Source of the DNA: a virus
IMG/VR virus record: IMGVR_UViG_3300038405_000273
Strand: one strand, 5' to 3'
DNA length: 64,000 bases
Each line of letters begins with the position of its first letter. Positions within the stretch are counted from its first letter, which is position 1. The notes beneath the pieces are model-generated. The model did not search any database. It had not been told where the DNA came from and was given only the letters and a program-made list of their open reading frames with translations. Below, one piece after another: positions 1,203 through 47,999 of this stretch. The translations under genes and the position numbers were made by a program.

Positions 1203-4200
1203 TTACGGGAAGATGCCGAAGTTGAAGCAGACGTTCACGTCGGTCAGTGTCCCGTCGGACGTGCGGCGGATGTAGAGCGTCTTGGGCGAGTTCCCGAAGG
1301 CGCCGTCGACGCACGAGACGGTGAAGCCTGGAGACGTGTTGTCGAGCACGCCGGCCGTGAAGACGTAGTTCGGGAACTGCACGGTGACAGGGCTCGCGCT
1401 GATCTGCCACTGGCCGGTACCGACGTGCGTCGCGGTGCAGTTGTGGCAGTTTTGGGTTACGCCATCCCCGCCGAGCACACCGCTGCACTCGGATATGCGC
1501 TGCCCGTGAACGGTGACGTGGCCGCCCGTGAAGACGTCGCCAGTAAGGGAGGAGATGCCGCTAACCTGCAAGCTGCCGCCACTACCAACCGAGATACCAC
1601 CCGCACCGACAAAGAGCGTGTTTGCGATCGTCGTGTCGCCCGCTGCAGAGATGGTCAGCCGTGCTACTCCGTTCGTTGACAGGAATAGCTGATGTGCGTC
1701 GCTCGTGCCTACGACCAAGTCCTGCCCAGCAGTATTGAAGTAGTCTTGCGCATGTACGTCTCGACTGACGTGCAAATCGCTTGAGAACGTTCCGACCCCG
1801 GTCGAGTCCAGCGTGAGGATGGTCGTTCCGTTCACACTCAGAAATATTGACTGCGTATCGAGTGTAGCCAGTGTTAGCCCCGTCCCGAGAGGCGCAGCAA
1901 TGCCAAACGTCGCATACACCCTTCCTGCAAACGTCACAGCGCCATTCTGCAGCGGGCCTGCCGTGATGTCGACGAGCCCGAGCGTGCCGCTCACTTGGAG
2001 GACGTTTCCGAGAAAGACCGGATACGACGGGACGTTGTTTGTCGCGTTTCCAGCGTTGGTTGGACTTAGGTAGGCGCTATCTCCTGGGTTCGGTGCCGAG
2101 TCGAACTGGATCCATTGCGGTCCTGCTGTCCCTACGACCACACGGCTATTCGCGGCGCCAGTTGAAATGCTAACGCCAACAATTCCAACGGAATGGACCG
2201 AATCGCCTTTCGCCGGGATGACACGCCCGTTGACCTGTTGGCGAACGACGCTATAGCGGTTCGTTCCGGTGCCAGTGTCGGTTGGGTAGGTCTCCTGGAA
2301 GCGCTGGGGAGCATTCTGGCTTGAAATGATCTGGTTTCCGGCGGGATCCACGATCCCATTGGCAGCATCAGCCCAACTGACAATCGTGCCGTCCGAAAGC
2401 CGGATGTCGCCCAACGAGCCGGTGACTGTAGGCGCCCCGTTAAGGACGACCGTCGCACCCTGCGCGTTCGTCATGTCGAGCCCGACATCGCTGTTGCCCG
2501 TCGATCCCGCCGTGTTATTGGAGAGCGCCAGGACCGTACCGCGGCCACGCAGTAGAATCGCCGGCAACAGGCCCGAGCCCGTGATGGTGAGTAGGTTGAC
2601 GACGAGGGGTGCGCGAACGTCGAGGCCACCTACACCTGCTCTTGGTCCGATGACGCGAACAGGTGAGCCACTGCTGCCAATAGCCGCGCTGGTCGAATTC
2701 CACTGCGTGCTATCCCAGATGATCCCGCCACCAGCGACCGCGCCGGCTTGGATTACGCCAGCCGTGCCCCCAGACAGCGTGAGCGTGCTCGTAACTGCTA
2801 CGAGGCGCATAGTAGTCGAATATATGCCGTTCGTACAGCTCGCCGCGCTTCCCCACAGACCGCCGCCGACGGTATAGCTCGTGGCCACAAGCGGATCGAT
2901 ATACGAGTTTGCGACGAACAAGCACGACCCGAGTTGAGCGGTGATTACTCCGCCTAGACATCCAATAGTCGTAGCAATCGACGCGTTGATCGTGATGCTG
3001 GCAAATGAGATACCTACGAACTGAATACCTGCGTTGGCAATAGCGTTGCCCTTGTTTCCCTGGCCGCTGTAGTTCGTGGCCGGATAGGATAGCCCTGGCA
3101 TCTCTAGATAAAAGCGGTCGCTAGTGCTAGGCGTAGCAGGCAACGCCGAGTCGAGAGTGACAGTATCGGTTCCGCTGACAATGATCACCGTGCGGCACAC
3201 ATTTCGCAGCGCTGTCGTTGCCGTAGCGCTATCGAACCGGATGCGGCCCATCAGTGGTAATGCTGGTTCGGCAGGCAGTGCGGCTGCACCGCCGCCAGCC
3301 TGCTGCATTTTAATCACCTTCGTAGTGGGACTACCGATCGGGTTATAACCACCGGAATTGCAACCGGTAGAAGTGGTGAACCCGCAAAAAGTGCGATCTG
3401 CTGTGTCGTCAGCAAACGCGATAGAGCTTGCCGTTGCATTTGTCGTGGTACCACGCACGAGGCTAGCAGCGGATAGACCGCTTGCACCGCCGAGAAGCGT
3501 TTCGATGTCGGCTGTTGCATACGTCTGCGCCGCGACAATCAGCCGGAAAGTCCGACCGGCGTATTGTTGGGGCATAATCGCCTGCAAACCCGCAACCGTC
3601 TTCTTCGCTTGTGTCGCCGGGTTGTACGGGCCCGCGCTATCCGAGTAGCCGGGATTTGCATCGCTTCCGTTCACGGGATCGAGAAGGAACGTGCGTACAG
3701 TCGTCAGCGCCCATGTCGCGATCAGATTGTGTTGGCTAATGTTTCCGGTCACGATCAGATCGCCGCCGACGCTTTCGTTCCCAGTGATAGAGGAATTGCC
3801 CGACACGCTCAGGCTGCCACCATCGTTGATCGTGAGACCGCCACCGCCACTCAGCGTGATCGCTCCGCCGCTCACGAACAGGCCGTTCGAGAACGTGCCG
3901 AGTCCGACCGCCGTCAGCGTGCTGTTGAACGTCGCCGCGAGCATGACGCCGAGCGTCCCGCCGATAGTCGCGTTGTTCAGCACGGCAAGCGTGTTGAGCG
4001 TGGCAACGCCGGAGCACTGAATCGCGGCAGCGAAGACCGTTCCGCTGACCGTCAAGTCGTGGACGACGCTGACGGAGCTGTCGAAAACAGCGGCCGTCTG
4101 AACCGTAATTCCGCCGGGGACGACCAGGCTACCCGGAAGCACCATGGGATCCGGGATGCCCATTTGCACTGCGCCTTGCGCGCCGATGTTGCTGGGCGAC

Positions 4201-6485
4201 AAGAAGATCGCGTTCGGTGCTTGCGTCGTCAGGCTGGAAACGCCCGCTCCGCCTCCGCCGCCACCGGCTGGCCCTTGCGCGCCGGTACCGCCCTGCGCGC
4301 CTTGGAAACCCTGAGCGCCTTGCGCGCCGACGCCAGGGCCTTGAGCACCCTGGGCGCCCTGAAAGCCTTGCGCACCCGAGCCTGGACCTTGCGCGCCGGT
4401 AGAGCCCTGAAAGCCTTGCGCGCCCTGCGCACCCGAGCCCGCTGGGCCTTGAAACCCTTGCTGACCGTTCGCGCCCTGTGCCCCCTGCACGCCGATGAAA
4501 CCTGCAGGGCCCTGATTGCCTTGCGCTCCCTGCGCACCCGAGCCTGTCGCGCCCTGGAAGCCTTGCGCTCCTTGCTGCCCAGCCGGCCCGGACGTCCCGG
4601 TTGCGCCTTGCTGCCCAAGAGCGCCTTGGGCGCCCTGGAAGCCCTGCGTACCGGTCGCACCTTGGGAGCCTTGAGGACCGCCGCTCGGACCCTGCGGCCC
4701 TTGCGCGCCTTGGTTGCCCTGCGCGCCGCCGCTCGGCCCTTGCGCGCCGGTAGCACCTTGGGCGCCTTGAGCACCCGAGCCGGTCGCGCCTTGAAAGCCC
4801 TGCGAGCCCTGCGCGCCGGTCGCGCCTTGCGCACCGAGGCCGATTTGCCCTTGCGGTCCCTGTGGGCCTGCCGGCCCTTGCGCACCGCCCGTGCCGGTGA
4901 TTCCCTGTGCACCCTGAGCGCCTTGCGCGCCCTGTGAACCGGTTGCGCCCTGCGCGCCGGCGCCGGTGGCACCCTGCGCCCCTTGCGCGCCCTGTGAACC
5001 GGTTGCGCCCTGCGGCCCTTGCGATCCCGGAGGACCGCCGCTCGGGCCTTGGAAACCTTGCGCGCCCTGCGCACCCTGCGCGCCAGATGCAGGACCCTGC
5101 GCGCCGGTCGCGCCTTGCGCACCTTGATTGCCCTGCGAGCCAGTGTTGCCCTGCGCCCCCTGCACGCCGGTGAAGCCCGTCGGGCCCTGCGAGCCCTGGA
5201 AACCCTGAGCGCCTTGCGCGCCTGAGCCAGTCGCGCCCTGGAATCCCTGTGTTCCAGTCGCGCCCTGAAAGCCTTGCGCACCTGTCGCGCCTTGCGCGCC
5301 CGAGCCCGCGGGACCCTGAGCACCTTGCGCGCCTTGATTACCCGTGGCGCCCGAGCCGGTCGCTCCTTGGAAGCCTTGAGCGCCCTGAAAGCCCTGCGTT
5401 CCAGTCGCGCCTTGCAAGCCCTGCGGACCGGCCGATCCTTGAGCGCCGTTCGCGCCCTGGAAACCCTGCGCGCCTTGGCTGCCGACACCGGGGCCCTGTG
5501 CGCCCTGCGCACCCTGGAAGCCTTGAGAACCCTGCGCGCCGCCGCTCGGGCCCTGCGCGCCTGTTGCACCTTGGAATCCTTGCGATCCCGAGCCCGTCGC
5601 ACCCTGAGCCCCCTGGAAACCTTGCGTTCCCGTATTCCCCTGCGCACCTTGCGCGCCTGCGCCGGTCGCACCCTGGAAGCCTTGCGAACCCGTCGGACCC
5701 TGAGCACCGGTGGCGCCGGTCGTTCCGGTCACACCTTGCGCGCCTTGAGCGCCCTGGGCGCCGAAACCGATTTGGCCGGTTGCTCCCTGCGCACCTTGCG
5801 ACCCCTGTGCGCCTTGCGCCCCGGTGGCGCCGGTCGCCCCTTGCGCACCTTGCGCGCCCTGCGCCCCCTGCAGACCTTGGCCACCCTGCGCGCCGCCGCT
5901 CGGCCCCTGCGCGCCTGTTGCACCTTGGAATCCTTGCGCACCCTGCGAACCCACGCCGGGACCCTGCGGACCTTGCGCGCCCTGAAAGCCCTGGGCTCCT
6001 TGTGCACCTTGCACGCCTGGAAACCCGCGATCGCCTTGCGCGCCCTGCGGACCACCGAAACTTCCTTGTGAACCCTGCGGACCCTGCGCGCCGGTGCCGC
6101 CGCTGCCGAACGCGCACATGACGGTGTTCGTCGACGGGTACAGCAGCGGATCGGTCAGCGTTCCGATCGATACAGCAAGCGGCGGGGCGACATTCGTCGC
6201 GCGGCCCGGCATCGTCGCGGAGATGTAGAGCGGCTGCTGCGCAGTGATCGTGAGGCCAGGCTCTAACAGAACTGGCGCTTCGCCGACGGACCAGACCGTG
6301 ACCTTTCCGCCGGGGTTGACGACGCCCGAGAAGGCTGCGCCGACGTAGCCGGTGACGTTCGCCTGAGAGTCAGCAGATGCGCGCTTGCACTGGTTCGTCC
6401 CAGCGACACGGAGCAGCTCCCCCGAGACGATCGGGGTAGCGGTGACGTTCGTGAACGGAGGGAGGATTACGCCGTCTGCAGCCAT
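1203..6485 (-). CDS. Long collagen-like virion fibre protein (1760 aa)
   Basis: About 600 aa of Gly-X-Y repeats, N-terminal module shared with 6538..8157, [14 protein letters not shown] motif typical of entry to a beta-helix region, beta-rich C-terminus. Confidence 0.92.
4270..6090 (-). repeat. Collagen-coding degenerate 9-bp tandem repeats
   Basis: [15 protein letters not shown] triplets; exact 34-bp direct repeat at 4921 and 4981; near-identical ~54-bp repeat at ~5531 and ~5885; boundaries approximate. Confidence 0.95.
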
Positions 6486-6537: not shown

Positions 6538-8157
6538 TCAGTTATACATCTTGAGCGTAGCAGTAAAGTCGATCTCGGTCTGCCCCTCGCCCGAAGTCGT
6601 TGCGAGCACAGACACGAAGTCGCCGACGTTGACCGTATGTGCGTTTGCAGCGATGGCTGTACCCGTCGCGAACAGTGTCGCAGTGATCCCAGTGGAGACG
6701 CCGTTTACATAGACGGTAAGCACCACGTTGGGAGGACCGACGAACGTAATCACGTTCACGTAGAGCACGATGTTCGCCGTACTGATGGGGGCATACCACG
6801 CCCAGACCGGGCTTTCGCCCTGATTGTTGTCCATCAGGTTCACAGCTGATGTCGGGCGCACGAAGAACGACGCAGGTGCATTCAGCAGATTGTTGTTGTT
6901 CGCACTTCCACCGCCGAACGACAGGGGGAGCGTCCAAAATCCGAGCGTTCCTTGAAAGCCTTGGGCGCCTTGGGCGCCTTGAAAGCCCTGCGCGCCCGTC
7001 GAGCCTGTCGCACCGGTGGCGCCCTTCGGACCTTGAAAGCCTTGCGGGCCAGTCGCTCCAGTCGCACCCGTTGAGCCTGTCGCACCGGTGGTGCCCTGAA
7101 AACCTTGCGATCCCTGCGCGCCAGTCGTCCCGGTCGCACCCGTGTTGCCTTGCGCGCCTGTTTTTCCTTGCGCGCCTTGGAAGCCTTGGGCGCCCTGAGC
7201 ACCTGAACCGGTCGCGCCTTGAGCACCAGTCGCACCCTGAAAACCCTGCGATCCGCTTGAACCTTGCGCCCCTGCCCCGGTGGCACCTTGCGCGCCGTTG
7301 GCACCTTGAGCACCAGTGGCGCCTTGCGCCCCTTGAAAGCCAGCACCCGTCGCGCCCTGTGCACCGTTTGGGCCTTGGGCACCCGTCGCACCCTGCGCCC
7401 CTTGTGCACCTGCGCCGGGGCCCTGCGGACCGGTGGCGCCCTGAGCACCTTGAAAGCCTGCACCCTGCGAGCCCTGCGCGCCTTGCACGCCAGTCGCGCC
7501 CTGAAAACCCTGCGTTCCAGTCGCGCCCTGAGCACCGATGGAACCTTGCGCACCCGTCGCACCCTGTGATCCTTGAACGCCGGTCGCGCCCTGGAAACCT
7601 TGTGGGCCGGCAACACCTTGAGCGCCGATGGCACCCTGTGATCCTTGAACGCCGGTGGCACCTTGGAAGCCCTGTGCGCCGACGCCAGGACCCTGCGGAC
7701 CTTGCGGACCGGTCGCACCCTGGGCGCCTTGCGCGCCCGACCCGCCGCTGCCGAGGCCAGATGCAGGCAGTACGGCTTCGACCTTCCCTGTGCGAGCGTA
7801 CGCGCCTGCGTCGATGATCGTGCCGATCGGGATGGCGATCCCCGGCTCCACATTCGTCGCGTAGCCCGCTGTGGTCTCCGAGATGTAGAGCGTCTGTCCC
7901 TCAACGGGAGTGAGCCCCTGTTCGAGCAGCACGAGCGCGCGGCCGTCGGTCTTGACCAGCACAACGCCTGACGCGCTCGGCGTCTTGTTGATCTGCCCCG
8001 AGATGATAACGCCGACGTAGCCCTGTACGTGTGGATTCGAGTCGGCGATCGCACGTACGACTTGGTCCCTGCCCGACACACGGACGATGTGCCCCTCGAC
8101 GAGAGGAACGGTGTCCGCGTTGTAAAGCGGTGGGATTATTGTGCCGTCACCTGCCAT
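6538..8157 (-). CDS. Shorter collagen-like virion fibre protein (539 aa)
   Basis: About 260 aa of Gly-X-Y repeats, N-terminal module paralogous to 1203..6485, small beta-rich C-terminal domain. Confidence 0.92.
6955..7740 (-). repeat. Collagen-coding degenerate 9-bp tandem repeats
   Basis: GAQ/GAT/GFQ triplets; boundaries approximate. Confidence 0.95.
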
Positions 8158-8395
8158 GGGCTCGCTTTCGTCGAGGGCGCCCGAGCAGCATGTCGAGGCG
8201 CCGTTCTAGTTTCGCGCGGGCGGTCTGTGCGTACCGGTGCATCGCCGCGCAGCTTCCGCGATCGGCGGCGGTGCGAGCGGCGCTCAAAGCACGCGTGATC
8301 GCGGCGCGGGTGGACGGCGGAAGCGCGCGGGCTACACCGCGATAGGTGTCGGCAGTGTCGACGAGCACGCGAGTGTTGCAGGAGCGCGAGGGCAC
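8147..8395 (-). CDS. Small basic protein
   Basis: 82 aa ending [14 protein letters not shown]; overlaps the start of the fibre gene. Confidence 0.6.
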
Positions 8396-8399
8396 AGGG

Positions 8400-8765
8400 T
8401 CAGCGCCTCCGACGTCGACGTCGCCTCGACCCGTGCATCGACGACGCGGGTATGTACGTGCCTCGCTTCGTACGGATCATGTAGATCCGGCGGCTCATCG
8501 GGTTGCGCTTCTTCGGCTTCGGCTTGAGGAAGTCGAAGATACCGCTCAGGTCGCCGCGCCGTCGCGCACGTCGCTCGGCCGCCACCAGCTCGTCGCAGCC
8601 CACCATGAGCATCCGTCGCGCACGTCGAGCCTCGGACACCGTGATTTTGTGGTGCTTGGGATAGTTGACGCTGTTGATCGCGCGCCCGTTCCACATCAGC
8701 ACTGCAGCGGGACCGTGCGGCGAGCGCTGGAAGCGCACAGTGCAGCTCGACTTTCGGAAGGCCAT
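8400..8765 (-). CDS. Arg-rich basic protein
   Basis: Start MAFRKSS at 8765 is coupled (TGATG) to the upstream gene; ends MHGSRRRRRRRR. Confidence 0.65.
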   Translation of the reverse strand: MAFRKSSCTVRFQRSPHGPAAVLMWNGRAINSVNYPKHHKITVSEARRARRMLMVGCDELVAAERRARRRGDLSGIFDFLKPKPKKRNPMSRRIYMIRTKRGTYIPASSMHGSRRRRRRRR

Positions 8766-9121
8766 CAGCGGCGTCGCCTCCGCCGCGCTCGCACACGCCT
8801 TGGCAGGTGCATCAGCCAGAACGTCGGGAAGCCGAGGCCACGTCGGCGGCGCTTCGCTTTGCGCGCGCCGCTGAAGCCTTTCGGTGGCTTCTTCATCGGC
8901 CGCAGGCTCACGCTCATATGGTCGCCGTACCCACGCCCGGCATACCACTGCCCGTCGACTTTGAAGCGGTAGCTGCAGCGCTCGTTCGAGATCCACGAGC
9001 CGGGCGCGCCCGGTCGGATGCGCGTGCAGCTCACCTTGTGGCCGTGGCCGATCACGTTACCGGCGCCATCGGTGAGCACGCGGCCACCGTCCTTGACGTA
9101 GCCGCCGATCTTCCCAGCCAT
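8765..9121 (-). CDS. Arg-rich basic protein
   Basis: Start MAGKIGG at 9121 (TGATG coupling); contains FSGARKAKRRRRGLG, ends RVRARRRRRR. Confidence 0.7.
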   Translation of the reverse strand: MAGKIGGYVKDGGRVLTDGAGNVIGHGHKVSCTRIRPGAPGSWISNERCSYRFKVDGQWYAGRGYGDHMSVSLRPMKKPPKGFSGARKAKRRRRGLGFPTFWLMHLPRRVRARRRRRR

Positions 9122-9357
9122 CAGCGGCGCCTCCGACGACGCTTTGCCTTGCGTGCACCCCACAAATTGGCAGGCGTCTCGCGTGCACATGCGCCCACCG
9201 TCACGGTGCGCCGGGTGACGACGTTCGTGAGCGTCCAACAGTCGCCATTCGCCTTGCCGTCGCGCGAAAAGTCGGCGACGTCCGACGACGGCAGCGGCTT
9301 CGCCCAGCGCGGCCAGTCCCAGCGCTTGCCGTTCTTCTTGGTGATGATGTACGGCAC
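9121..9357 (-). CDS. Arg-rich basic protein
   Basis: 78 aa ending LWGARKAKRRRRRR. Confidence 0.7.
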   Translation of the reverse strand: MPYIITKKNGKRWDWPRWAKPLPSSDVADFSRDGKANGDCWTLTNVVTRRTVTVGACARETPANLWGARKAKRRRRRR

Positions 9358-9359
9358 GA

Positions 9360-9473
9360 TCAGCGCTCCCCTCGCACACGCTTGCTCGGCAGCTCCCGCA
9401 CAGCCTTGCGCACCACGACTCCGCGCCCTTTCTTGAGAACGCGTACGCGTGCAATCCGTCGGCGCGTTCTCAC
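9360..9473 (-). CDS. Very small basic peptide (37 aa)
   Basis: GTG start overlapping the upstream stop; MRTRRRIARVRVLKKGRGVVVRKAVRELPSKRVRGER. Confidence 0.45.
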   Translation of the reverse strand: MRTRRRIARVRVLKKGRGVVVRKAVRELPSKRVRGER

Positions 9474-9694
9474 CGCTGCACGCACGTCTTCGGGGTGAAC
9501 ATCCAGATCGCCAACCCGACGGCGAGCACGGTGCCGACGAAGCTGAGCCCTCGATTGCGCTCGATGAGGCATTCCAGGCGCCGTTGTCGGCACATCATGT
9601 GCGCGACCACTGCCGGATGTGCAGAGGGCACCGCCGCGGGCACGACCGCCGTCACCGGATCCGCGGGCGTGTCGCCGAAGGTCATGAGGCTCAT
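9470..9694 (-). CDS. Small protein with C-terminal membrane anchor
   Basis: GLSFVGTVLAVGLAIWMF hydrophobic helix. Confidence 0.6.
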   Translation of the reverse strand: MSLMTFGDTPADPVTAVVPAAVPSAHPAVVAHMMCRQRRLECLIERNRGLSFVGTVLAVGLAIWMFTPKTCVQR

Positions 9695-9734
9695 GCTACG
9701 CCGCCGCTCGGAGAGCGGTCAAATCGGCGTGCGC

Positions 9735-10199
9735 TCAGTCTTCGGCATCGCTCGCGTGCTTCGCCCACAGCACAGCGCCAACGACGAGTCCTGCGACGAC
9801 GAGCCCGCCGATCACCCACTTCCAGGGGAAGCCGCCTTCGCTCGCGCCGAGCAGCTCCACGCCGGGCGCGCCCGCCCAACCCCCGCCGTGCATCATCATC
9901 GCTTGCTGCTGCGCGGGCGCGGCCGCCGGCAGATTGGGCGCGCCGGCGCCGCACGGCAGCCCCGTCAGATCGTGCGTGTGCCCGTCGCTCTCATCGGGGA
10001 GCACGCGGAAATTCTTCACACGGTGAAAATGCCCCGCGTCGACGTCCGTGTTGCCGTCACCGTTCGAGTTGATGAATGCGCCGTGGTTGTGCAGCGGATA
10101 CTGCTTGCTCGGCGTCTGCGAGGTGAGCTGGCAAGGATTCCCGACCGGATGCAGCCGCGCGTACGGCACTGCATCCGGGTTCGGGTAGCGATGCTGCAT
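9735..10199 (-). CDS. His-motif protein with C-terminal membrane anchor
   Basis: Start re-picked at MQHRY (coupled to the upstream stop); HNH, GHFH and GHTH motifs; C-terminal WKWVIGGLVVAGLVVGAVLWAK. Confidence 0.7.
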   Translation of the reverse strand: MQHRYPNPDAVPYARLHPVGNPCQLTSQTPSKQYPLHNHGAFINSNGDGNTDVDAGHFHRVKNFRVLPDESDGHTHDLTGLPCGAGAPNLPAAAPAQQQAMMMHGGGWAGAPGVELLGASEGGFPWKWVIGGLVVAGLVVGAVLWAKHASDAED

Positions 10200-10375
10200 C
10201 AAACCACCCACCGGCGCTTCAGCCGCGAAATGAACGCGTCGATCTTCTTGTATTGGCGCAGCCCTGCCGACGTCATGGAGCGCGCGGCTGCAGCCCGACA
10301 GCTCCACAGCTGGTCATGCAGCCGAATTGCCGCCGCGCGTGTGCGCGGGAGCTTGCGGGGGATGCGACAGGTCAT
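10199..10375 (-). CDS. Small basic protein
   Basis: MTCRIPRKLPRTRAAAIRLHDQLWSC...RLKRRWVV; stop overlaps the next start. Confidence 0.5.
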   Translation of the reverse strand: MTCRIPRKLPRTRAAAIRLHDQLWSCRAAAARSMTSAGLRQYKKIDAFISRLKRRWVV

Positions 10376-10388
10376 CGGGCGCGCTCGA

Positions 10389-11153
10389 TCAGGCCGCGTA
10401 ATCGCCGGGGCGCAGGACGTTGCCCTGCGCGTCGCGGTACTCGACCACGCGCCCGTTGCAGATCGTCTTGTGCATCCCCGAGACGCTGTCGTACACGGTC
10501 TCACACGCAGTGGCCTGCTGCGCGGCGACCTCGTGAATGGTCTCGGGCTGCCACATCCGCGAGAACCACCCTCGACGGCGGCGCGGACGGCCGAACGCGT
10601 AGCCGAAGCCGTGCGTGGCGGCGGGCGCCGGCGCTCCCGGAGCCGCAGCGGCCGCGGGCGGCGCGGGCGGAGGCGGCGGGGGAGGAAGCGGTGCCGTCTG
10701 GAACGGCATCGACCGGTGGATGCGGCCGCTCGCGTTCTGGACGCCGGCTCGAATGTTCGACCCGTTCGCCATGACGCCCGGTAGGTACCCGCTGCGCATG
10801 ACCATGTACGGGTTCACGTGTGCATGGCCGCCCCCGACGCCGCCCGTCGCACCGAACGCGCCAGCGAAGCCAGCCGTCCCACCGGGCTTCGGCACCGGCG
10901 GCGCCACCGGCGCTCCTGGCGCTCCTGGAGCAGCGGCCGCGGGCGGCGCGGGCGGTGGGACCGCCGGCAGCGGCACCGGGCCCATGCTCGGATTGAGCGG
11001 CGGGCGGTACATGCTCGCGGCCGCCATCGGCAGCATGATCTTCGTCAGCGGGTGGAAGTGGCTGAAGAATCCGACGTCGGGGATCTTCGGCTGCCAACCG
11101 GGCTGTGCGGCGGATGGCGTCGAGAACGGGGTGCGGGATTGGCCGAGAATCAT
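10389..11153 (-). CDS. Pro/Ala-rich protein with internal duplication
   Basis: Start re-picked at MILGQ; two copies of PPPAPPAAAAPGAP; AFGRPRRRRGWF motif. Confidence 0.7.
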   Translation of the reverse strand: MILGQSRTPFSTPSAAQPGWQPKIPDVGFFSHFHPLTKIMLPMAAASMYRPPLNPSMGPVPLPAVPPPAPPAAAAPGAPGAPVAPPVPKPGGTAGFAGAFGATGGVGGGHAHVNPYMVMRSGYLPGVMANGSNIRAGVQNASGRIHRSMPFQTAPLPPPPPPPAPPAAAAAPGAPAPAATHGFGYAFGRPRRRRGWFSRMWQPETIHEVAAQQATACETVYDSVSGMHKTICNGRVVEYRDAQGNVLRPGDYAA

Positions 11154-20920: not shown

Positions 20921-21237
20921 AGCAACCCCTCCAGCGGATCGCCGAGCTTCGCCTTGATCGCGCGCTCACGCCACTCTATCGCTTCGGCGAGGTAGTTCGC
21001 CGCGACTAGCGCCGCCGCTTCGTCGTGCGGCTTGAACGCCAGCGTCGATACGGCCAAGCGCTGCACGGCCATGTACCGTGGCGATGGGTCCTTCCGCACC
21101 TCTTGTCCGTCGACGTACTCGCGATTGATCGCGCCGCGCATGCGTGGTTCGAGCATTGTCCAGTGCATGCGACACACGAACCGGCGAGGCGGGACCGGCG
21201 TTTGACAGTCGTGTGCGTGGCAGAGGTGCGGCGGCAT
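20917..21237 (-). CDS. Cys/His zinc-binding phage protein
   Basis: Start MPPHLCHAHDC; C-x4-C...C-x2-HW motif. Confidence 0.7.
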   Translation of the reverse strand: MPPHLCHAHDCQTPVPPRRFVCRMHWTMLEPRMRGAINREYVDGQEVRKDPSPRYMAVQRLAVSTLAFKPHDEAAALVAANYLAEAIEWRERAIKAKLGDPLEGLL

Positions 21238-21245
21238 CGGGCGGC

Positions 21246-21776
21246 TCAGTGGCGGCGTTGCTCGTCGATCAGCTCGGCGACACGGGGTGGCTGCCAACCC
21301 GGAGGCTTGAGCGTCTTTCCGTCGGGCCGCGTCGCGCCACCTTCCTTGGCGATGTTCGTGCGGTGGACCTCGTCGAAAATCGGCTGGATGTTGACGCCGA
21401 ACTCGATCGCGGTCCCGAACGTCACGTAGAGCAAATCGCAGATGCCGTCGATAGCCTCGACGAGATCGGGCGTCGCAGGCGCGCTCTCTTCGAGGCGCCC
21501 AAGCTTCGAGCGCAGCAGAGCGCGCGTGTTTGTGGTTCCGAGGATGCCGACGACTGTCTCGATAGCCTCTTCGAGAATCAGGGCGGCGCGCAGCTCCGGG
21601 CGTCGAATATCTGGTGTCTCGCCAATCGTGTGGCCGAACTTGCGGTGGAACTCTTCGACCTGCTCCTGCATCCGATTTTTCAATGCGCGCTCCTTTCGCA
21701 TCTCGCGTTTGCCGCCGAACACGGCGTCGAAGTTGTCTCGATACTCTTGCGTCGCAGGTCTCGTCACGATCGACAT
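21246..21776 (-). CDS. MazG-like NTP pyrophosphohydrolase
   Basis: ILEEAIE, EAIDGICDLLYV, EVHRTNIAK, RPDGKTLKP motifs. Confidence 0.88.
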   Translation of the reverse strand: MSIVTRPATQEYRDNFDAVFGGKREMRKERALKNRMQEQVEEFHRKFGHTIGETPDIRRPELRAALILEEAIETVVGILGTTNTRALLRSKLGRLEESAPATPDLVEAIDGICDLLYVTFGTAIEFGVNIQPIFDEVHRTNIAKEGGATRPDGKTLKPPGWQPPRVAELIDEQRRH

Positions 21777-26394: not shown

Positions 26395-27180
26395 TCAGAG
26401 GTTCGCGTATGGCGGCTGCCGCGCGCGAAGGAAAGCAGCGAGGTCGGCTGGCACGACGGCTTGCGCAACGCCCTCGCGATTCTTCATTCGCCAGTAGCGC
26501 CAGTCCACGGGCGGCTGCAGCGGGTTCAGCTCCGCCGGCCACGTGTTGCCGCCTGTCCAGTACACACGCATCGGTGGGCGTCCGACCGGTGTGAGGTAGT
26601 CGACGCGCAGCACAGTGTCGAGCTGGCCGTGGTAGTCCTCGATCATCGTCTTCGGCGCGAGAAGTGGGCCACCGAGATAGAAAACGCCGTCCTTCACCGT
26701 GGGGGGCATCGCGTGCGCGATCATCACGCAATGCATACCGAGCATACGGATCCACTCGCGTAGCTGGAACAGCGCGCCTCGCATGGCGACAGGGGTGAGG
26801 TACTTGTTTTTGCTGCTCGCGTTCGCCGCTTCGAGATCCTTGTACATGTTCGCGGTCAGCGTCGAGATCGTGTCGATGATGACGGCGCGATAGCGGCCAC
26901 GCCCATTCTGTCCCAGCCAAGCGATCGTCTCGACCATCTGCTGCCACGTCTTCACGGTCTCTTTCACGTGACCGGGCACGGGCAGTCCGCGCGCGGGGAT
27001 GATCTTCAGCGCGCCGTCTTCGCAAGGGATGAAAAACGCCGAGCACGTATTGCCTGAGCAGAACGCGCGCACAGCGTCGGTGGTCTTCTCACTGCCGGGC
27101 GGTCCGTAGAGCAGCACGTTGGCTGGCAGCGCCGCGATGTTCTGGTAGGCGCTATCGCCTTCGACGATGTCAATTGGCAC
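26395..27180 (-). CDS. AAA_24 / Sak4-like phage ATPase
   Basis: LLYGPPGSEKT P-loop variant, VIIDTIS, CVMIAH. Confidence 0.8.
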   Translation of the reverse strand: MPIDIVEGDSAYQNIAALPANVLLYGPPGSEKTTDAVRAFCSGNTCSAFFIPCEDGALKIIPARGLPVPGHVKETVKTWQQMVETIAWLGQNGRGRYRAVIIDTISTLTANMYKDLEAANASSKNKYLTPVAMRGALFQLREWIRMLGMHCVMIAHAMPPTVKDGVFYLGGPLLAPKTMIEDYHGQLDTVLRVDYLTPVGRPPMRVYWTGGNTWPAELNPLQPPVDWRYWRMKNREGVAQAVVPADLAAFLRARQPPYANL

Positions 27181-27406
27181 GCGTGGGCTCCGTTGGCTGT
27201 GGCGGAGCGAAGGCGTCCTGCGCTGCGTGGAACATGTCGTGCGCCTGATCGTGGAACTCGTGGCAGTCCGTGTGCGTGTTCAGCTTCGTCGCGGCACTGG
27301 CGGCGACTAGTAGCAGCGACTCGACGCACTCGCGCGGGCTGCATCCGCTGCGGTCGGCTGCGCGTGCGAGCTTCGCGATCAGCTGCTCCATCTTCGGCGT
27401 GCGCAT
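27170..27406 (-). CDS. Hypothetical protein
   Basis: Start MRTPKM coupled (TGATG) to the upstream stop. Confidence 0.6.
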   Translation of the reverse strand: MRTPKMEQLIAKLARAADRSGCSPRECVESLLLVAASAATKLNTHTDCHEFHDQAHDMFHAAQDAFAPPQPTEPTRAN

Positions 27407-28284
27407 CACGTCCTCCTCACGTACTGGATCAGCTCGTGGTCCCCATTGGTGCAGATGTCGTAGAAGTCGCATCTCCCATACTTACGGAGGCAACTATCGA
27501 GATTCCTTGGTCTTTTTCGCGGATCCGGCCAGCGCTTTCGCACGTCGCGCATCCGCTCCAGCACGTACGCTGTGTCCTCGCCGAGACGCGCGTACGCCTC
27601 GTGCGAGATCGGCACTTCGAAGCGGCCGAACTTTGCCTCGGGCCACTCGCGCGACATCGCGTTGATCACGACGCGCGAAATGTTGTAGCCAAACAGCCGA
27701 GCGAGCGCGAGCTGCGTGAGCATCTGCCGATCGGCGCGGTAGCTCGTGCCGGTGTGGTTGGAGAGCTTGCTGCCGGTCTTGTTGTCGATCAGCCACAGCT
27801 CGTTTCCGACTTGCGCCATCAAGTCGATTCGCGCGCTGTAAGGCTCGGTGCTGCCGTCGGGCATCGTGAACTGTGAAACAAACTGGTGCTCGACGAGCAC
27901 AGGCTGCCACGGCACGACCATTCCGCGCGCGATCAACGGATCGTAGAACGCACAGTACGCGTCGTAGATGCGAAGAGCTTCCTGCGCGAGGTCAGGGCGG
28001 TCCGCGCCGCAGATCCAGATCGCGTAGCGGCCATCTGGATAGACAAGCCAATCGGGCTTGACAGGAAGAAGCACGCCGTATCGATAGGCGAGGCCGACGT
28101 GCACGAGCGTGCCGACCTTTGTCGCTTCCTTCTCGATCGCAGGGCGCAGGTTCAGCTCGTAGCCGAAGCCTTCGAGTTGTGGGCACAGGTCGAACGCACC
28201 GACGCGGTGGGGGCCTTGGAGTGAGGCGCCTCCGGGCCAAATTGCGTGGCCTGTATTGACGTGGCCAAGATGCGTATCGGGCAT
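27406..28284 (-). CDS. PD-(D/E)XK (Cas4/RecB-like) nuclease
   Basis: CP...GTLVH, ARIDL, LIDNKTG, C-terminal C....CDFYDIC. Confidence 0.85.
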   Translation of the reverse strand: MPDTHLGHVNTGHAIWPGGASLQGPHRVGAFDLCPQLEGFGYELNLRPAIEKEATKVGTLVHVGLAYRYGVLLPVKPDWLVYPDGRYAIWICGADRPDLAQEALRIYDAYCAFYDPLIARGMVVPWQPVLVEHQFVSQFTMPDGSTEPYSARIDLMAQVGNELWLIDNKTGSKLSNHTGTSYRADRQMLTQLALARLFGYNISRVVINAMSREWPEAKFGRFEVPISHEAYARLGEDTAYVLERMRDVRKRWPDPRKRPRNLDSCLRKYGRCDFYDICTNGDHELIQYVRRT

Positions 28285-32787: not shown

Positions 32788-33012
32788 TTACGTGTCCCAG
32801 CCGGTCTCGGCGATGTCGCCAAGGTCGAACTTGATCGACGCCAGTGAACGCAGCTCTATCTTGGCGTTCGGCGACCCGTAGAACTTCTGCGCACGCGTTC
32901 GCGGGTCGATGCCCAAGAATGCAAACGACTGGATCCCGAGCTGCTGGGCCAACACGGAAATCTGTGTGACGAACTGGTCGAGGATCGGCGCCGGGATGTC
33001 GTTCTGTGCCAT
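32788..33012 (-). CDS. Hypothetical protein
   Basis: MAQNDIPAPILDQFV...; start 33012 or 33036. Confidence 0.6.
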   Translation of the reverse strand: MAQNDIPAPILDQFVTQISVLAQQLGIQSFAFLGIDPRTRAQKFYGSPNAKIELRSLASIKFDLGDIAETGWDT

Positions 33013-33032
33013 GAAGACGAGTTTACACCCGC

Positions 33033-33488
33033 TCATACGGGCTTGACGATACGGCTCTCCTCGCCTTGTTGTTGGGGCGCCTGATAGGCGATCACGGCGC
33101 CAACGACGCTCTTCACGAGCGCTCGATGCGCGTCTTTGATGGCGTCTGGAAGGTCTTCCCATGTCTGCTGGCCGCCCTTCGCCAGCTCGTGGCCCGCACA
33201 CACCACCACCGAACACAGAGCAGCTTGCACAGCAGCCTCATCGGCTCTGTCCGGCACGATGCGCGTCCCATGCAGAACTACTGCAGCGGTCTCGATGGCT
33301 GCCTCCTGATTGAGTAGCGCGTTCTTCGCTAGCACCAACGACTGCTGTGTGTTCCCCGCCGTGATCACGCGGTTCCCGTCACGGAAGACGACGAACGCTT
33401 CGGCTTGTTGCTTGGCGAGCGCCTTGAGCATGCTACCAACGTAGACGCGAATCGGTATCGCGTTCGGATCGATCATGTGGTCGGCCAT
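33033..33488 (-). CDS. Hypothetical protein
   Basis: AAGGAG RBS before MADHMID. Confidence 0.75.
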   Translation of the reverse strand: MADHMIDPNAIPIRVYVGSMLKALAKQQAEAFVVFRDGNRVITAGNTQQSLVLAKNALLNQEAAIETAAVVLHGTRIVPDRADEAAVQAALCSVVVCAGHELAKGGQQTWEDLPDAIKDAHRALVKSVVGAVIAYQAPQQQGEESRIVKPV

Positions 33489-33499
33489 TGGGTGCTCCT

Positions 33500-35434
33500 T
33501 TACTCTGCGTTGAAAAACCACATCCAGAACAGCCGGCCGTTCTCGATGTTCGTGCCGAAGTAGCAGCTCGCCGAGTGAATCAAGCGGCTGTCGAACAGTA
33601 CGAGGCGATTGTAGACGTTGCCGATCCGATCGATCAGCTCCCACGCCGTCAGGTCGAAGAGCTTCCCGTCGAACGTCTCGCGCGAGACAGCGTCGTCCGT
33701 TGGCGAGCGCCGATGCTTCGTCGCCTTGCTGCGATAGAAACTCGTTCCGGACTCGGGCGGCGCGTCCGGGGTGAGCATGATCATCGCGGCGTAGCTCTGC
33801 GCATCCGCGTGGTACACGATCGGGTCTTCCGACGTGCAGTATTGAAACTTGCCGTTCACCGGCTGCTCTTCCCAGTCGGTGATGCGCTTGCCGAGAAGGT
33901 TCTCGAACAGCTCCTTTTCGATCGCGTGGTGGAACCGTTCGGCCGAGCGCACGCCCGCCGAGCCCTGCTTCGCGTAGGTCTGCATCAACGCTGTGCCACG
34001 CCAGTAGTGCGGGTTGGCGAGGAAGTCGTCGACGACGATGATCGTGGGGGTGGTCGATCCGATGATGGCGCTTTCGCGCGAAGTCAAGACGGGATCCATC
34101 GAAACCTCCAACGACGTGCTTGCGTGGGCGCGCCGAAATAGAAGCAGCGTTTCTCGAAACCACGGAGTCGAGCTGTTCGGAGGGACAACCGAGCGAGCAG
34201 CAGCCGTCCAGCTATCCACGTGTTCGAAACCGCGTGTCGCCAAGCTCCTGATTATCTCGTCATTGCTTTTGCAGTTGACGTGCCCCGTCCCGCCTTGGCC
34301 GGGCACCGCCCAGGATAGGATCAACCGATCGGCACAATTATTGGCTAGATTGTCGAGCAGTTGGTGCTCGTACTCGGCGGGGATATGCTCGCCGACTTCC
34401 AGGCAGACGATCGTTCCAGGCGGCACGGAGAACGGCACGGTGAGATCGCGCTGCTCGATCGCGGGATGGAGCCGATAGGCAAGCGGCAACGGTTCTCCCT
34501 CGAACCCGCACAAGTTGATATGGCCTGCATCTGCAAGCGCGCGCAGATAAGTCCCCGCCCCACAGCCGAAATCGTATATCGGAGCGTCCAACGGGGTGTC
34601 TGCAAGAAATCCGACGATCCACGCAGCGAGTTCACGAGACCACCCGTAGTCGTCTGGACGAAGCTCCCCAGACCAAAAACCTGTGTGCGAAATAATCATC
34701 TTGTCCAGACGAGGATACCGCGGCTTCGCATGGATACGATCGCGTTCAGCAAGGTCCGCGATGCGCTCGTCTTCTGTGCTTTGTCCGAACCAGCCCGCGC
34801 CGGCGCTCGTGTTGTACATGCACAGCACTTCATCGATGAATGCACGCTTCTCTCCTGCCATATCCGCGAGCGGCAACATGACGGCGCGGTCCGTGCAGTA
34901 GTAGCACCATGCTCCGCTAGGCGTCTTTAAGTCGTCCTCGGCAATGCGCTTGACCAGCCACGCGCGAAACGTTCTCAAGTGCGTCAGTCGCCAGTCCCAC
35001 GGTACATCCCTGGGATCGACACCGGGCGGGTACAGCCCCGCGAAGCCGCGCTTGGGAAAGCCGAGTGGCGGCTCGGTGAACTCGAACTGCCCGTAGGTGA
35101 ACCACGCGTCGGTATCTTGATACACCTGCACCAGACGATCGAAGACGCGATCGTGCGCCAGCCAGTCGTCGCCATCGAGCCAGACGATGATCTCGTCGTC
35201 GGGGAGGCTGTGCCAAATAGGAAAGAGGTTGGCTAGGCTCGGCGCCAATGAACGCCGCACACGGACGCCTGCGCTCGCCACACTCTCGGCCGCGAGCGCT
35301 GTCTCTTCGTCGGCGGCGCTGTAGACGTGCATCCAGTGCGGGTAGCGCTGTGCACGCACGGACTCGATGCACTTCGGCGCCCACTGCGCCGCGTTCTTGG
35401 CCGTCGACGTGACGGTGAAGTGAGGAAGGCTCAT
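33500..35434 (-). CDS. GT2 glycosyltransferase + SAM methyltransferase + 2OG-Fe(II) oxygenase fusion
   Basis: WLDGDDWL (DxD), YDFGCGAG (SAM motif I), YHAD...FDSRLIHS (HxD...H). Confidence 0.85.
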   Translation of the reverse strand: MSLPHFTVTSTAKNAAQWAPKCIESVRAQRYPHWMHVYSAADEETALAAESVASAGVRVRRSLAPSLANLFPIWHSLPDDEIIVWLDGDDWLAHDRVFDRLVQVYQDTDAWFTYGQFEFTEPPLGFPKRGFAGLYPPGVDPRDVPWDWRLTHLRTFRAWLVKRIAEDDLKTPSGAWCYYCTDRAVMLPLADMAGEKRAFIDEVLCMYNTSAGAGWFGQSTEDERIADLAERDRIHAKPRYPRLDKMIISHTGFWSGELRPDDYGWSRELAAWIVGFLADTPLDAPIYDFGCGAGTYLRALADAGHINLCGFEGEPLPLAYRLHPAIEQRDLTVPFSVPPGTIVCLEVGEHIPAEYEHQLLDNLANNCADRLILSWAVPGQGGTGHVNCKSNDEIIRSLATRGFEHVDSWTAAARSVVPPNSSTPWFRETLLLFRRAHASTSLEVSMDPVLTSRESAIIGSTTPTIIVVDDFLANPHYWRGTALMQTYAKQGSAGVRSAERFHHAIEKELFENLLGKRITDWEEQPVNGKFQYCTSEDPIVYHADAQSYAAMIMLTPDAPPESGTSFYRSKATKHRRSPTDDAVSRETFDGKLFDLTAWELIDRIGNVYNRLVLFDSRLIHSASCYFGTNIENGRLFWMWFFNAE

Positions 35435-35447
35435 CGCGCGTGCGCCA

Positions 35448-37939: not shown

Positions 37940-39625
37940 CTACTCCTTGAACACGTCTGCGATGGTGAGGTCGCCGCCGTTCGGACCGTAGACCAGATCG
38001 AGCGTCCGCAAGCCGCTGATTGCATTCGCGAAGCCGCTCGACGTGATGCTGTAGTCGGTCTCGCTAGCGATCGTCTCGCGATCCACAGTGCCATGACCGT
38101 ACACGCATGCGAGGATTGTCGCCTCAGCTTTCGACAAACGGCGCCGCCAGTAACCGAGCAGCTCCGCGCCGCGCGGCAACGGCTCAACCGGTCCGGCGAG
38201 TTCGCGTCCAGCCTGTGTGATTCCACGTCGATCGGGCGAGCCGTCGTCGATGAGCCTTTTCGTGCGCAGCTCCGACAACGCGTTCGCGAAGCCGCTCGAT
38301 GTCTTTCGGTACCCGGAAAGCGCCGAGAGCTGCGAGTCCGATGCAACGCCGCGCTGGGCAAGCACGCCGAGAAGCGCGCGAGCACAGCGGGACAGTTGCG
38401 GGTCACCATCGCGTGGGGGTGAACCGTTCTCGAACCGTCCGTGCTTCGCTGCTGCTACGCCGGCCGCGACGCCGTCCATCATGGCCTGCTTCGCCGACTT
38501 GCCAAGCACAGTGCGCACGTTCCCCAGCTCGGACAGAACGGCTTGCTGAGCCTGCGCGAGCTTGTCGACGAGCTTCTCCAGCCGCTTGATGCTCTTTTCG
38601 GAGAGCACCTCGCGTTCAATCGTCTTCGTCGGCGCGCCCGTCTGCTTTGCCAGCGCAAGCCCGCGCTCCAGCTCGGCGATGCGTGCACGTAGAATTCTCG
38701 GGTCGTTCGCCTTGGCCTCTTCGACAGCCGTTCCCATCACCGTTTCCAGCTCGGCGAGGTCGAGCGCTTTGATCTTGACGGCCTTGCGCACGGCGAGCGG
38801 CGTCGCGTTCACGTCGTACGTGGCACGCTTGTGAAGCTGGTAGGTGCCGTAGGTGTTGAACACGCTCGGCGACCACACGATAGCGTTGCCGCGCGCGAGC
38901 CCTGGTAGCTCATCCTTCACGGCGTCGCGGCCGATGGCTTCTTTTTCCTGCACCCACTCGGCGATGGCCTTGCGTTCGAGCACGCCGTTCATGCGAAGCG
39001 CGATCAGCACGTCGGCGAGATTGAGCACGTCTTTGTTGATCTTCTGCGGGCGCTGCGAGATGAGGCCGAGGCCGATTCCGTAGTTTCGGCCGACCTCGGC
39101 GATCTCCTCGAAGGCGCCCAGCATGCGCTCCTGCCCCGTGAAGAGCTTTTGCGGGATGAACCGCTGTGACTCCTCAAGCCAGATCTGCACAGGGCCGGGA
39201 TGGTCTTTCTTCACGCGGAAGAACGTCTCGGCGAAGTCGGTCGCGAAGCGGCAGCGGTCGCCCTTCGACATGAGGCTCACGTCGAGAACCGCGGACGATT
39301 GGCTGCGCGCGAGCGCGTCGGCCACTACAGAACCTGTCGACGGCATGAGCGGGATATCGCCGTGCGCGCCGCCAAGAACCGGGATCTGGAACGGCGATGG
39401 ATGCTTGCCGGTGTCGTCGAGGCGAAGGCTCCAATAAATACCCACGTAGTCGATCACGATCACAGGGATCGACGCGGCGAGTAGCCCCTCGATGATCACG
39501 AAGGCCGCGTTCGACTTGCCCGATCCGCGATTTCCGAGCAGGGCGACGACGAGCGTCGAGAGTTCAGCAGCGGGGAAGCCGAGGTCGCGAGCGAGACGGA
39601 CGTTTTTCATCGTTTCCCTTTCCAA
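37940..39625 (-). CDS. HerA/FtsK-like ATPase (DUF87-like) with tandem C-terminal winged helices
   Basis: GNRGSGKS, LEESQRFIPQ, GRNYGIGLGLISQRP; two TSSGFANA(L/I)SxLRT repeats; start 39625 or 39610. Confidence 0.88.
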   Translation of the reverse strand: MERETMKNVRLARDLGFPAAELSTLVVALLGNRGSGKSNAAFVIIEGLLAASIPVIVIDYVGIYWSLRLDDTGKHPSPFQIPVLGGAHGDIPLMPSTGSVVADALARSQSSAVLDVSLMSKGDRCRFATDFAETFFRVKKDHPGPVQIWLEESQRFIPQKLFTGQERMLGAFEEIAEVGRNYGIGLGLISQRPQKINKDVLNLADVLIALRMNGVLERKAIAEWVQEKEAIGRDAVKDELPGLARGNAIVWSPSVFNTYGTYQLHKRATYDVNATPLAVRKAVKIKALDLAELETVMGTAVEEAKANDPRILRARIAELERGLALAKQTGAPTKTIEREVLSEKSIKRLEKLVDKLAQAQQAVLSELGNVRTVLGKSAKQAMMDGVAAGVAAAKHGRFENGSPPRDGDPQLSRCARALLGVLAQRGVASDSQLSALSGYRKTSSGFANALSELRTKRLIDDGSPDRRGITQAGRELAGPVEPLPRGAELLGYWRRRLSKAEATILACVYGHGTVDRETIASETDYSITSSGFANAISGLRTLDLVYGPNGGDLTIADVFKE

Positions 39626-46829: not shown

Positions 46830-47042
46830 ATGGCACGTACGCGAAAAAGAGCCCTTCGTCGGTTCGTGTTCGGTGAGCCCAAGGCCCGTCGTAAGCGGCG
46901 CGCCTCGGGCGTAGCCGCGCGAGCCAAGAACGCCCCGAAGCACTGCAAGGTGGAGCTGGGGTCGTGCATGCGTGGCGGGGGCGGGCGATCGAAGGCAGGG
47001 AAGTGCATGAAGGCGTACTGGGGCTGCATCAAGTCGAGCTGA
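46830..47042 (+). CDS. Arg/Lys/Cys-rich basic protein
   Basis: MARTRKRALRRFVFGEPKARRKRR; four Cys. Confidence 0.7.
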   Translation: MARTRKRALRRFVFGEPKARRKRRASGVAARAKNAPKHCKVELGSCMRGGGGRSKAGKCMKAYWGCIKSS

Positions 47043-47049
47043 GCGCGCC

Positions 47050-47998: not shown

Positions 47999-47999
47999 G

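Follow-up and report, generated by a model that had tools for sequence, protein, structure and literature searches.

The array and its shared basic tails

We analysed a window of DNA from an uncultivated soil virus, the whole stretch of 64,000 nucleotides of the IMG/VR record IMGVR_UViG_3300038405_000273, in which an array of small genes on the minus strand (8147-11153) encodes basic proteins that share a short module made of a hydrophobic residue (Phi), any residue, a glycine and a run of arginines and lysines. The G+C content of the window is ~65%, and its recognisable genes are viral: a family A DNA polymerase, Dda-like and SNF2 helicases, ThyX, thymidylate kinase, a PolB-like exonuclease, a PD-(D/E)XK nuclease, an HNH endonuclease, a HerA/DUF87-type ATPase, glycosyl- and methyltransferases and two collagen-like fibres. 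The array lies between the replication module and the fibre genes and was read as eight minus-strand genes, with the collagen fibre genes at 6538-8157 and 1203-6485 continuing in the same direction. Four consecutive genes of the array end in an Arg/Lys run, preceded in three of them by hydrophobic-x-Gly, and the same is true of a gene in a second cluster (47747-47998); the common form of these tails is Phi-x-Gly-(Ala/Ser/Arg)-(Arg/Lys)4-9. An earlier note on this DNA had listed a set of such motifs, every one of which was found at its place on the minus strand (Table 1), and one of which, LLG-ASEGG, was rejected as a member and is put down to chance, being neither basic nor conserved in the orthologues. 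Two further observations of that note stood as made. The decapeptide GARKAKRRRR is indeed identical in two neighbouring genes, the nine of its 30 bases that differ being all synonymous, and the genes are translationally coupled, by TGATG stop/start overlaps at 10199, 9121 and 8765, by a GTG start 4 nt beyond the stop at 8400, and by an overlap of 11 nt (8147-8157) between the gene of 82 residues (aa) and the start of the fibre gene.

The earlier note had proposed that the motif be checked against the Arg/Gly background, and the tails exceed it. When the expected counts were taken from within-protein shuffles that keep each protein's own composition, the window held 5 proteins with at least five Lys or Arg in the last eight residues against 0.31 expected (maximum 3 in 1000 shuffles), and a related contig of 121.5 kb (IMGVR_UViG_3300050821_013777, 88% complete, hereafter G001) held 9 against 0.57 in the same test. 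Over six related viral sequences a basic C-terminal tail was present in 39 of 343 proteins, a count that includes orthologues from several genomes. Glycine occupies position -1 or -2 of the basic run in 19 of these 39 tails, where 18% would be expected (binomial P about 1e-5), with a hydrophobic residue one or two places before it in 18 of the 19, and six more of the 39 hold Phi-x-G(A) inside the scored tail window. The proteins that carry tails fall into >12 families without detectable mutual similarity, BLASTP among the array proteins detecting similarity in 3 pairs only, and searches of Pfam and PHROGs with all eight proteins of the cluster and with the second cluster returned nothing above threshold. 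Sorting signals of the LPXTG, PEP-CTERM and GlyGly-CTERM kinds combine a motif, a transmembrane helix and a basic cluster, and in the tails the Gly motif is followed by the basic run with no intervening hydrophobic segment. In the literature collection searched, no prior description of such shared tails in phages was found.

The region had no nucleotide-level match among 50,697 phage records. Metagenomes of soil and rhizosphere contain the same DNA, with no RNA run among those listed, and over 8100-9500 the contigs of four further runs from these habitats are 100% identical; the region is thus not an assembly artefact, and these identical contigs carry no information on polymorphism of the tails. 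The array and its synteny recur in five related viral contigs (G001, L020, L022, L023 and L026). G001 is syntenic with the window at an amino-acid identity of roughly 35-78% (most genes 40-65%), and at the corresponding position downstream of its replication module stands an unbroken row of fifteen small, coupled genes, whose products end, among others, in NFG-RARPRRRRR, LAG-AHKRRRR, SLG-RRRR, FNG-AKRRRRR, LHG-AKRRKRSR, ILG-RAKRKRRRR and LSG-RKRRRR. The tail pattern appears also in L020, L023 and L026, and is sparser in L022 (57% G+C); in the window and in L020, L023 and L026 the array runs into or ends near genes of fibre or receptor-binding type.

Table 1. Positions of the array genes, tail motifs and related features (positions refer to the window unless a contig is named)
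Feature	Position	Strand	Place or basis
254-aa Pro-rich protein, first array gene	10389-11153	-	open reading frame and coding score
58-aa basic protein, isoelectric point 11.9, 2 Cys	10199-10375	-	sequence only
154-aa His-rich protein, C-terminal transmembrane helix	9735-10199	-	orthologues in G001, L020, L026
74-aa membrane protein, without basic tail	9470-9694	-	53% identical orthologue in G001, also in L020
78-aa protein, small alpha/beta domain and tail	9121-9357	-	eight homologues, AlphaFold2 model
118-aa protein, beta-domain, internal motif, GLGFPTFW patch, second tail RRVRARRRRRR (8768-8800)	8765-9121	-	28 homologues, AlphaFold2 model
121-aa protein, ~72-aa N-terminal domain ending LSG, then ~45-aa extension	8400-8765	-	homology to G001
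82-aa protein, last array gene	8147-8395	-	orthologues
Collagen-like fibre gene, context only, no tail	6538-8157	-	Pfam Collagen, E=1e-31
83-aa tail carrier of second cluster, ending GLG-RARRRR (47969-47995), GGAGG within tail	47747-47998	+	sequence
LLG-RPRRKR	8150-8188	-	C-terminal
MHG-SRRRRRRRR	8403-8438	-	C-terminal
LSG-IFDFLKPKPKKR	8505-8549	-	internal
FSG-ARKAKRRRR	8837-8875	-	internal
LWG-ARKAKRRRRRR	9124-9165	-	C-terminal
AFG-RPRRRR	10569-10598	-	internal
LLG-ASEGG	9831-9854	-	before transmembrane helix, not basic
Copies of the ~45-aa extension	8403-8549; L011 10220-10363; L020 6960-7105; L026 10520-10671
N-terminal arms, examples	46830-47313; L022 8795-9677; L023 11830-12482, 17549-17746
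Paired cysteines, examples	8147-10375, 46830-48233; L011 8106-12666

Orthologues support seven of the array genes (8147-8395, 8400-8765, 8765-9121, 9121-9357, 9470-9694, 9735-10199 and 10389-11153). Codon-usage scores are weak or negative for 8147-8395, 8400-8765 and 10199-10375, and the first two were accepted as genes because orthologues exist; no orthologue was found for the 58-aa gene at 10199-10375, the stop of which overlaps the next start (TGATG), and with its weak coding score it is the least certain member of the array. The 254-aa protein has a conserved internal linker, FG-RPRRRR-GW, in front of a small C-terminal domain, and its orthologues in G001 (49% identity) and L020 keep HGFG-RP(H/R)KRR-W. 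In the 154-aa family the His/Asp-rich core is conserved and the LLG-A segment is not. The N-terminal domain of the 121-aa protein is homologous to a 75-aa protein of G001 that ends SLG-RRRR, and the orthologues of the 82-aa protein, 64-66% identical, always stand last in the array and end LLGRR, LLGPARSR or LLGRRR. By consensus matching alone, promoter-like sites lie at 11204-11175 and 9722-9693, and no terminator-like site was detected on the minus strand between the array and the fibres. In the minus-strand gap between the 74-aa and 78-aa genes (9357-9470) a short frame reading HAYAFSRKGAESWC resembles the middle of 58-aa and 67-aa proteins of G001 and L020 (IHVFTRKGAERVL), and looks like a decayed remnant of another array gene. 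A programmed frameshift joining neighbouring open reading frames (ORFs) at the Arg run was rejected by inspection, there being no slippery heptamer at CGC CGC TGA.

Several genes elsewhere deserve mention. The HerA/DUF87-type ATPase (37940-39610), with matches to HerA-family PDB entries down to E=6e-12, adjoins two helix-turn-helix (HTH) genes and has relatives of 28-37% identity on ten viral contigs of 20-75 kb. A membrane-anchored protein (50595-51182) has a C-terminal match to RuvA domain III (Pfam RuvA_C, E=5.6e-5, at the cut-off). Neither in the window nor elsewhere was a family of capsid, portal or terminase proteins recognised; ten candidate structural proteins of the relative had no match in PHROGs, and protein-atlas look-ups gave no clue to the capsid type. 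Three ORFs of G001, of 178, 287 and 164 aa (L013 12866-14314 and 16131-16625, corresponding to G001 32866-36625), have the top per-residue codon-usage scores of that relative and no family match, and are candidates for its major structural proteins. As to the host, one homologue sits on a contig binned with a Vicinamibacterales metagenome-assembled genome, which is a weak hint.

The tail as a portable peptide and as a ribosome-binding site

The earlier note had proposed a modular tag shared by small proteins that are otherwise unrelated, and this part of it was borne out: the tail was met in >12 families across the six related viral sequences. Two families, those of the 118-aa and 78-aa proteins, were aligned with their tails, using 28 and 8 homologues from metagenomes, respectively. 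In the first, 19 of the 28 sequences carry C-terminal (L/F)-x-G-(A/S)-R4-8 after linkers of varying length, and members without the Arg run are also without Phi-x-G-A. A profile search with this family over 1.84 billion representatives gave 50 relatives, the close ones often carrying the module and the distant ones ending soon after the domain. In the second, all eight homologues end NLWGA(R/K)...Rn, with variable length and K/R content. Within families, the tail has been gained, lost and moved. A larger unit is mobile as well. In the 121-aa protein a C-terminal extension of ~45 aa begins KKRNPMSRRIYMI and continues with IP, MHG and poly-Arg, in the general layout of a hydrophobic or aromatic patch, KKKxKR, NPMS(R/K)R-IYMI, G..IP, Phi-x-G and Rn; in different genomes this extension is joined to four or more unrelated N-terminal domains, that encoded at 8400-8765 included, and recurs in P0081 and P0082, where it is fused to the 78-aa family.

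The tails use all six Arg codons, and Lys and Arg interchange in them. Together with the synonymous-only differences between the two copies of GARKAKRRRR, this sequence evidence indicates that selection keeps the tail as a peptide. The spread of the tails as a conserved DNA linker cassette was considered and is not compelling, the only recurring word, GCGAAGCGC, corresponding to preferred Ala-Lys-Arg codons.

A point absent from the earlier note is that the Shine-Dalgarno (SD) sequence of the next cistron lies inside the tail codons. GGAGG words at 9130-9134, 8777-8781 and 8406-8410 fall within the last four codons of their genes, 8-10 nt before the next start, and each is placed to serve the next gene. 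Of 27 tails of the window and its relatives, 22 hold a word of the GGAG type, in most cases 10-14 nt ahead of the last base of the stop and 5-9 nt from the overlapping start; the remaining five have no SD-like word, and some of these are not followed by an overlapping start (e.g. L011 8282). The common junction reads (C/A)GG AG(A/G) CGN TGA TGG CC, so that the last residues are R-R-R or G-R-R and the next protein starts M-A. This is the arrangement of coupled cistrons, in which the upstream stop is overlapped or abutted by a start codon with an SD-like word 5-10 nt ahead of it. Judging from these sequences, most tails provide the SD of the next cistron (CGG AGG or AGG AGA) with their final two or three Arg codons. 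The in-frame SD also accounts for the excess of AGG and AGA, which make up 23% of the Arg codons of the tails as against 6-8% genome-wide, and the SD/stop-start junction for the excess of Arg as last residue of all genes (18% of the window proteins and 29% of the G001 proteins, against 7% overall). In the window and G001 alike, CGA is over-used before TGA, a bias that fits ATGA/TGATG coupling with an in-frame SD across the genome.

Such figures raise the possibility that translational coupling in a GC-rich genome has produced the tails as a by-product, an SD and its CG-rich spacer merely reading as Arg and the peptide being idle. The GGAG(G/A) words in the last codons, lying at the right distance from an overlapping ATG, speak for it, as do the genome-wide excess of terminal Arg and the over-use of CGA-TGA. 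Nevertheless, SD-like words overlap only 40 of the 147 basic tail residues, so the SD accounts for about a quarter of the basic residues and not for the whole tail, and five tails do without an SD altogether. Neither the internal FSG-ARKAKRRRR and AFG-RPRRRR nor the N-terminal arms described below can be SD-driven, Lys (AAG) freely replaces Arg, and the conserved Phi-x-G-A head is left unexplained. As the sole cause, coupling is largely refuted by these observations, and we regard an idle peptide as very unlikely.

Possible roles of the arm

The array proteins have more in common than the tail. They are small (58-154 aa) and very basic (isoelectric point 10-12, and about 10 or more in all but one of the 32 small proteins tabulated), with Lys and Arg making up 16-31% of the residues overall and concentrated in the arms. 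A mirror image of the tail occurs at the N terminus, where the arm reads M-A-(K/R)-R-R-R-R followed at some distance by hydrophobic-Gly-(A/G/E). It is often found on array proteins without a C-terminal tail, some members of the 118-aa family carry both, and the neighbours of the tail carrier of the second cluster (46830-47313) begin with MAR(T/R)R arms. Of 63 array proteins, 53 have a basic arm at one end or both; the corresponding figure for the remaining small proteins of these genomes is 42 of 151 (P=3e-14). Furthermore, the number of cysteines is exactly 2 or exactly 4 in 25 of 29 array proteins, where their own Cys frequency predicts 10.5 such proteins, a bias without counterpart in the other small proteins of the same genomes; this pairing suggests one disulfide or metal site per mini-domain.

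Structure prediction with AlphaFold2 gave different folds for the two tail families, with intrinsically disordered tails. The 118-aa protein is modelled as all-beta, with a predicted local distance difference test (pLDDT) score of ~90 over residues 1-80 and disorder beyond, and the 78-aa protein as beta-alpha-beta-beta, with a pLDDT of ~86 over residues 1-60 and a disordered tail. No convincing match was obtained for the 118-aa model with Foldseek against the PDB and the clusters of the AlphaFold database (AFDB) or with VIA-align in its wide search, nor for the 78-aa model with Foldseek against the PDB or with the same VIA-align search. The best fold matches were one uncharacterised AFDB cluster (TM-score 0.54) and VIA Z-scores of 3.8 and 3.1, and Cren7, eIF5A and GYF were weak look-alikes only. 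The central 40-50 residues of the 118-aa beta-domain (G.G..IG.G..V.C..I.PG..G.WIS..RCSY) recur in giant metagenomic proteins, as tandem repeats numbering 28, 10 and 5 in P0031 (7077 aa), P0054 and P0057, respectively.

In their anatomy, a folded mini-domain is joined through a Gly hinge to a disordered polycation, and almost all members of this diversifying array between the replication and fibre genes show it; it fits best with an arm that binds nucleic acid. We propose that it may act as a sequence-nonspecific polyanion binder tethering diverse paired-Cys mini-domains to nucleic acid, and we hold the chances of this proposal to be about even. The disordered polycationic arm would bind DNA or RNA by charge, without sequence specificity, and would thereby tether a diversified set of mini-domains to it, most likely to the viral genome, with coating, condensation or co-packaging of the genome as the outcome; the Gly would be a hinge at the domain boundary rather than a proven cleavage site. 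Circumstantial support for a chromatin-like role may be seen in the paired cysteines, in the ability of KRRR peptides to slide on DNA and in a SET-domain protein of 128 aa in G001 (L013 1140-1526, equivalent to G001 21140-21526; Pfam E=3e-10). The SET gene is not in the window, the corresponding region lying beyond its end, and the remaining contigs, which are partial, did not yield it. Among the substrates that prokaryotic SET enzymes methylate are histone-like proteins (PMC3980110), and one may speculate that the G001 protein modifies the Lys residues of the arms. As a similarly speculative aside, ARKA in the tails of the window recalls ARKS of histone H3.

Several points weigh against this proposal. 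Its support comes from comparison of sequences and from predicted models; the tail counts, for the orthologues they contain, are not phylogenetically independent; and neither modelled domain resembles a known DNA-binding fold, to judge from the best Z-scores given above. Polycations also bind anionic membranes and acidic proteins, and the Trp/Phe patches next to several tails would be well suited to the interface of a membrane. To speak of core proteins, moreover, is analogy only, because no capsid, portal or terminase family was recognised.

The earlier note had seen in Phi-x-Gly a possible cut for a viral maturation protease, with poly-Arg as a removable tag for loading into the virion or as a residual DNA-condensing peptide. 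Clan CA/CE cysteine proteases generally favour hydrophobic residues at P4/P3 and Gly at P2/P1, a general taste that the motif would satisfy; the tail is a discrete module behind variable linkers, and the array is co-oriented with and coupled to the fibre genes. Adenain, however, cleaves at (M/I/L)-X-G-G|X or (M/I/L)-X-G-X|G, with Gly at P2 and again at P1 or P1', and the tails read Phi-x-G-(A/S/R)-(R/K)n, with the second Gly absent in almost all, and the N-terminal arms put the hydrophobic residue in a different register. Nor did the search for a maturation protease that the note had suggested yield one: Pfam recognised no adenain- or Ulp1-like (Peptidase_C5/C48-like), prohead or other maturation protease in those proteins that were scanned, about 50 from the window, itself part of an incomplete genome, and 65 from G001. 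A retropepsin-like match at 48987-49488 (Asp_protease_2, 17.8 bits against a cut-off of 24.3, with DPG for D(T/S)G) was rejected as the maturation protease, being below threshold, split between two overlapping frames (region 48987-49636) and followed by an ORF resembling CopG of the ribbon-helix-helix type, a pair that has the look of a toxin-antitoxin-like remnant. The only positive lead, a weak one that comes from the relative, is a transglutaminase-like protein of 320 aa with a papain fold (G001 26816-27778, L013 6816-7778; Pfam 23.7 bits, cut-off 23), which lies among small membrane proteins and whose core is split at the catalytic Cys, where an intein-like sequence is inserted (..GGGD|CLP...VHN|CDDHA..), this Cys being apparently the +1 residue of the intein. 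A Gly hinge explains the motif without cleavage, and the proteolytic explanation, which the data do not support so far, appears to us quite unlikely.

Anionic membranes are another possible partner for the arms, which might fix the proteins to a membrane of the host or an internal one of the virus, or work as cationic, membrane-active peptides during lysis or entry. Aromatic patches typical of interfacial peptides flank several tails (NLW-G, FPTFW, WWPF, IFDFL), the array includes small membrane proteins (9470-9694 and, by its C-terminal helix, 9735-10199), and the unrecognised structural block of the relative is rich in them; yet runs of pure Arg that show no amphipathic periodicity are more characteristic of proteins that bind nucleic acid, a hydrophobic segment is missing from most carriers, and more than ten paralogous lysis peptides would be unprecedented, so that we give a membrane role little chance. 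Substrates of type IV secretion carry Arg-rich C-terminal signals recognised by coupling proteins of the VirD4 type, and a charged terminus might likewise be a translocation signal read by the HerA/FtsK-type ATPase that the window encodes at 37940-39610. The signal is terminal, portable and charge-based, as that idea would have it, but the argument is pure analogy from secretion signals, the ATPase adjoins HTH regulators, and no homologue of it was found in the 88%-complete G001; such a function strikes us as extremely unlikely.

Beyond nucleic-acid tethering as such, a more inclusive scenario can be drawn, which we consider doubtful. A hitherto unrecognised lineage of large soil viruses, possibly infecting Acidobacteriota, would load a fast-diversifying set of disulfide-stabilised mini-proteins onto its genome or into its particle by means of a portable poly-Arg 'address arm' at either terminus, possibly trimmed at Phi-x-Gly and methylated at Lys by a viral SET protein, and the same codons would drive stoichiometric co-translation of the array. 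That the tails amount to a genuinely new protein-tagging or genome-coating system of prokaryotic viruses is, in our estimation, unlikely to a similar degree.

Significance and comparison with known systems

The general view is that bacterial viruses pack their DNA naked, with small cations neutralising it, and examples of genome coating or condensation by proteins come mainly from eukaryotic viruses. That a dozen or more unrelated mini-proteins of one genome share a transferable polycationic arm points either to a virus-encoded chromatin-like layer or to a general means of tethering proteins to nucleic acid, in an unexplored lineage of soil viruses whose structural genes match no known family. 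In the inclusive scenario above, the poly-Arg address arm would be the prokaryotic-virus counterpart of adenoviral core proteins and protamines; Phi-x-G-A-Rn itself is a compact natural tag and a candidate DNA-tethering handle. The tails also offer a natural example of dual coding, in which one stretch of 10-15 nt encodes a selected peptide and is at once the ribosome-binding site of the next gene, a fact that matters for gene calling, for biases in C-terminal composition and for the design of synthetic operons.

Among known systems, the adenoviral 'molecular sled' pVIc resembles the tails in being a terminal peptide with an Arg/Lys core (KRRR) behind a boundary of the hydrophobic-x-Gly type, and the sled itself is portable and moves unrelated cargo along DNA. 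Short basic peptides with a KRRR core, which is required for sliding, bind and slide on DNA (PMC4797294; PMC4740752), and pVIc is freed by adenain at IVGL|G and then activates this protease (PMC4740752; PMC4797294). The tails share the general features of a sled, namely a short terminal peptide, here predicted to be disordered, that has a core of at least 3-4 consecutive Arg/Lys and is joined to a cargo; they differ in lacking the defining Gly, in their longer runs (4-9) and in their prokaryotic host, and no protease was recognised with them among the proteins scanned.

Protamine-like proteins condense the genomes of several eukaryotic viruses, as do P6.9 of baculoviruses, VII and mu of adenoviruses and P64 of ascoviruses (PMC12159748; PMC7998265; PMC6163548). 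These are likewise small, very basic and rich in Arg, and the paired cysteines of the array recall disulfide-locked protamines. However, protamines have an Arg content of roughly 30-40% or more along their whole length, in contrast to the arm-concentrated basic residues of the array proteins, which combine a predicted folded domain of 60-80 aa (pLDDT 86-90) with a separate tail and are represented by >10 different carriers per genome.

In lambda N and in Tat and Rev of HIV, Arg runs bind nucleic acid by charge, each within a single protein with a defined RNA target. Like these arginine-rich motifs and the C-terminal domain of the hepatitis B core protein (PMC7412469), the tails are terminal Arg runs predicted to be disordered, but the tail of the window is common to many unrelated proteins. 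Finally, ordinary operons coupled by TGATG or ATGA, with the SD in the 3' end of the upstream gene, show the same architecture and the same effect on C-terminal codons; such coupling constrains two or three codons, whereas the tails of the array comprise 6-14 residues, headed by a conserved Phi-x-G-A, and are kept also where coupling is absent. Both ingredients, polycationic arms that bind nucleic acid and coupling through an SD within the ORF, are known from other systems, and the array combines the two.

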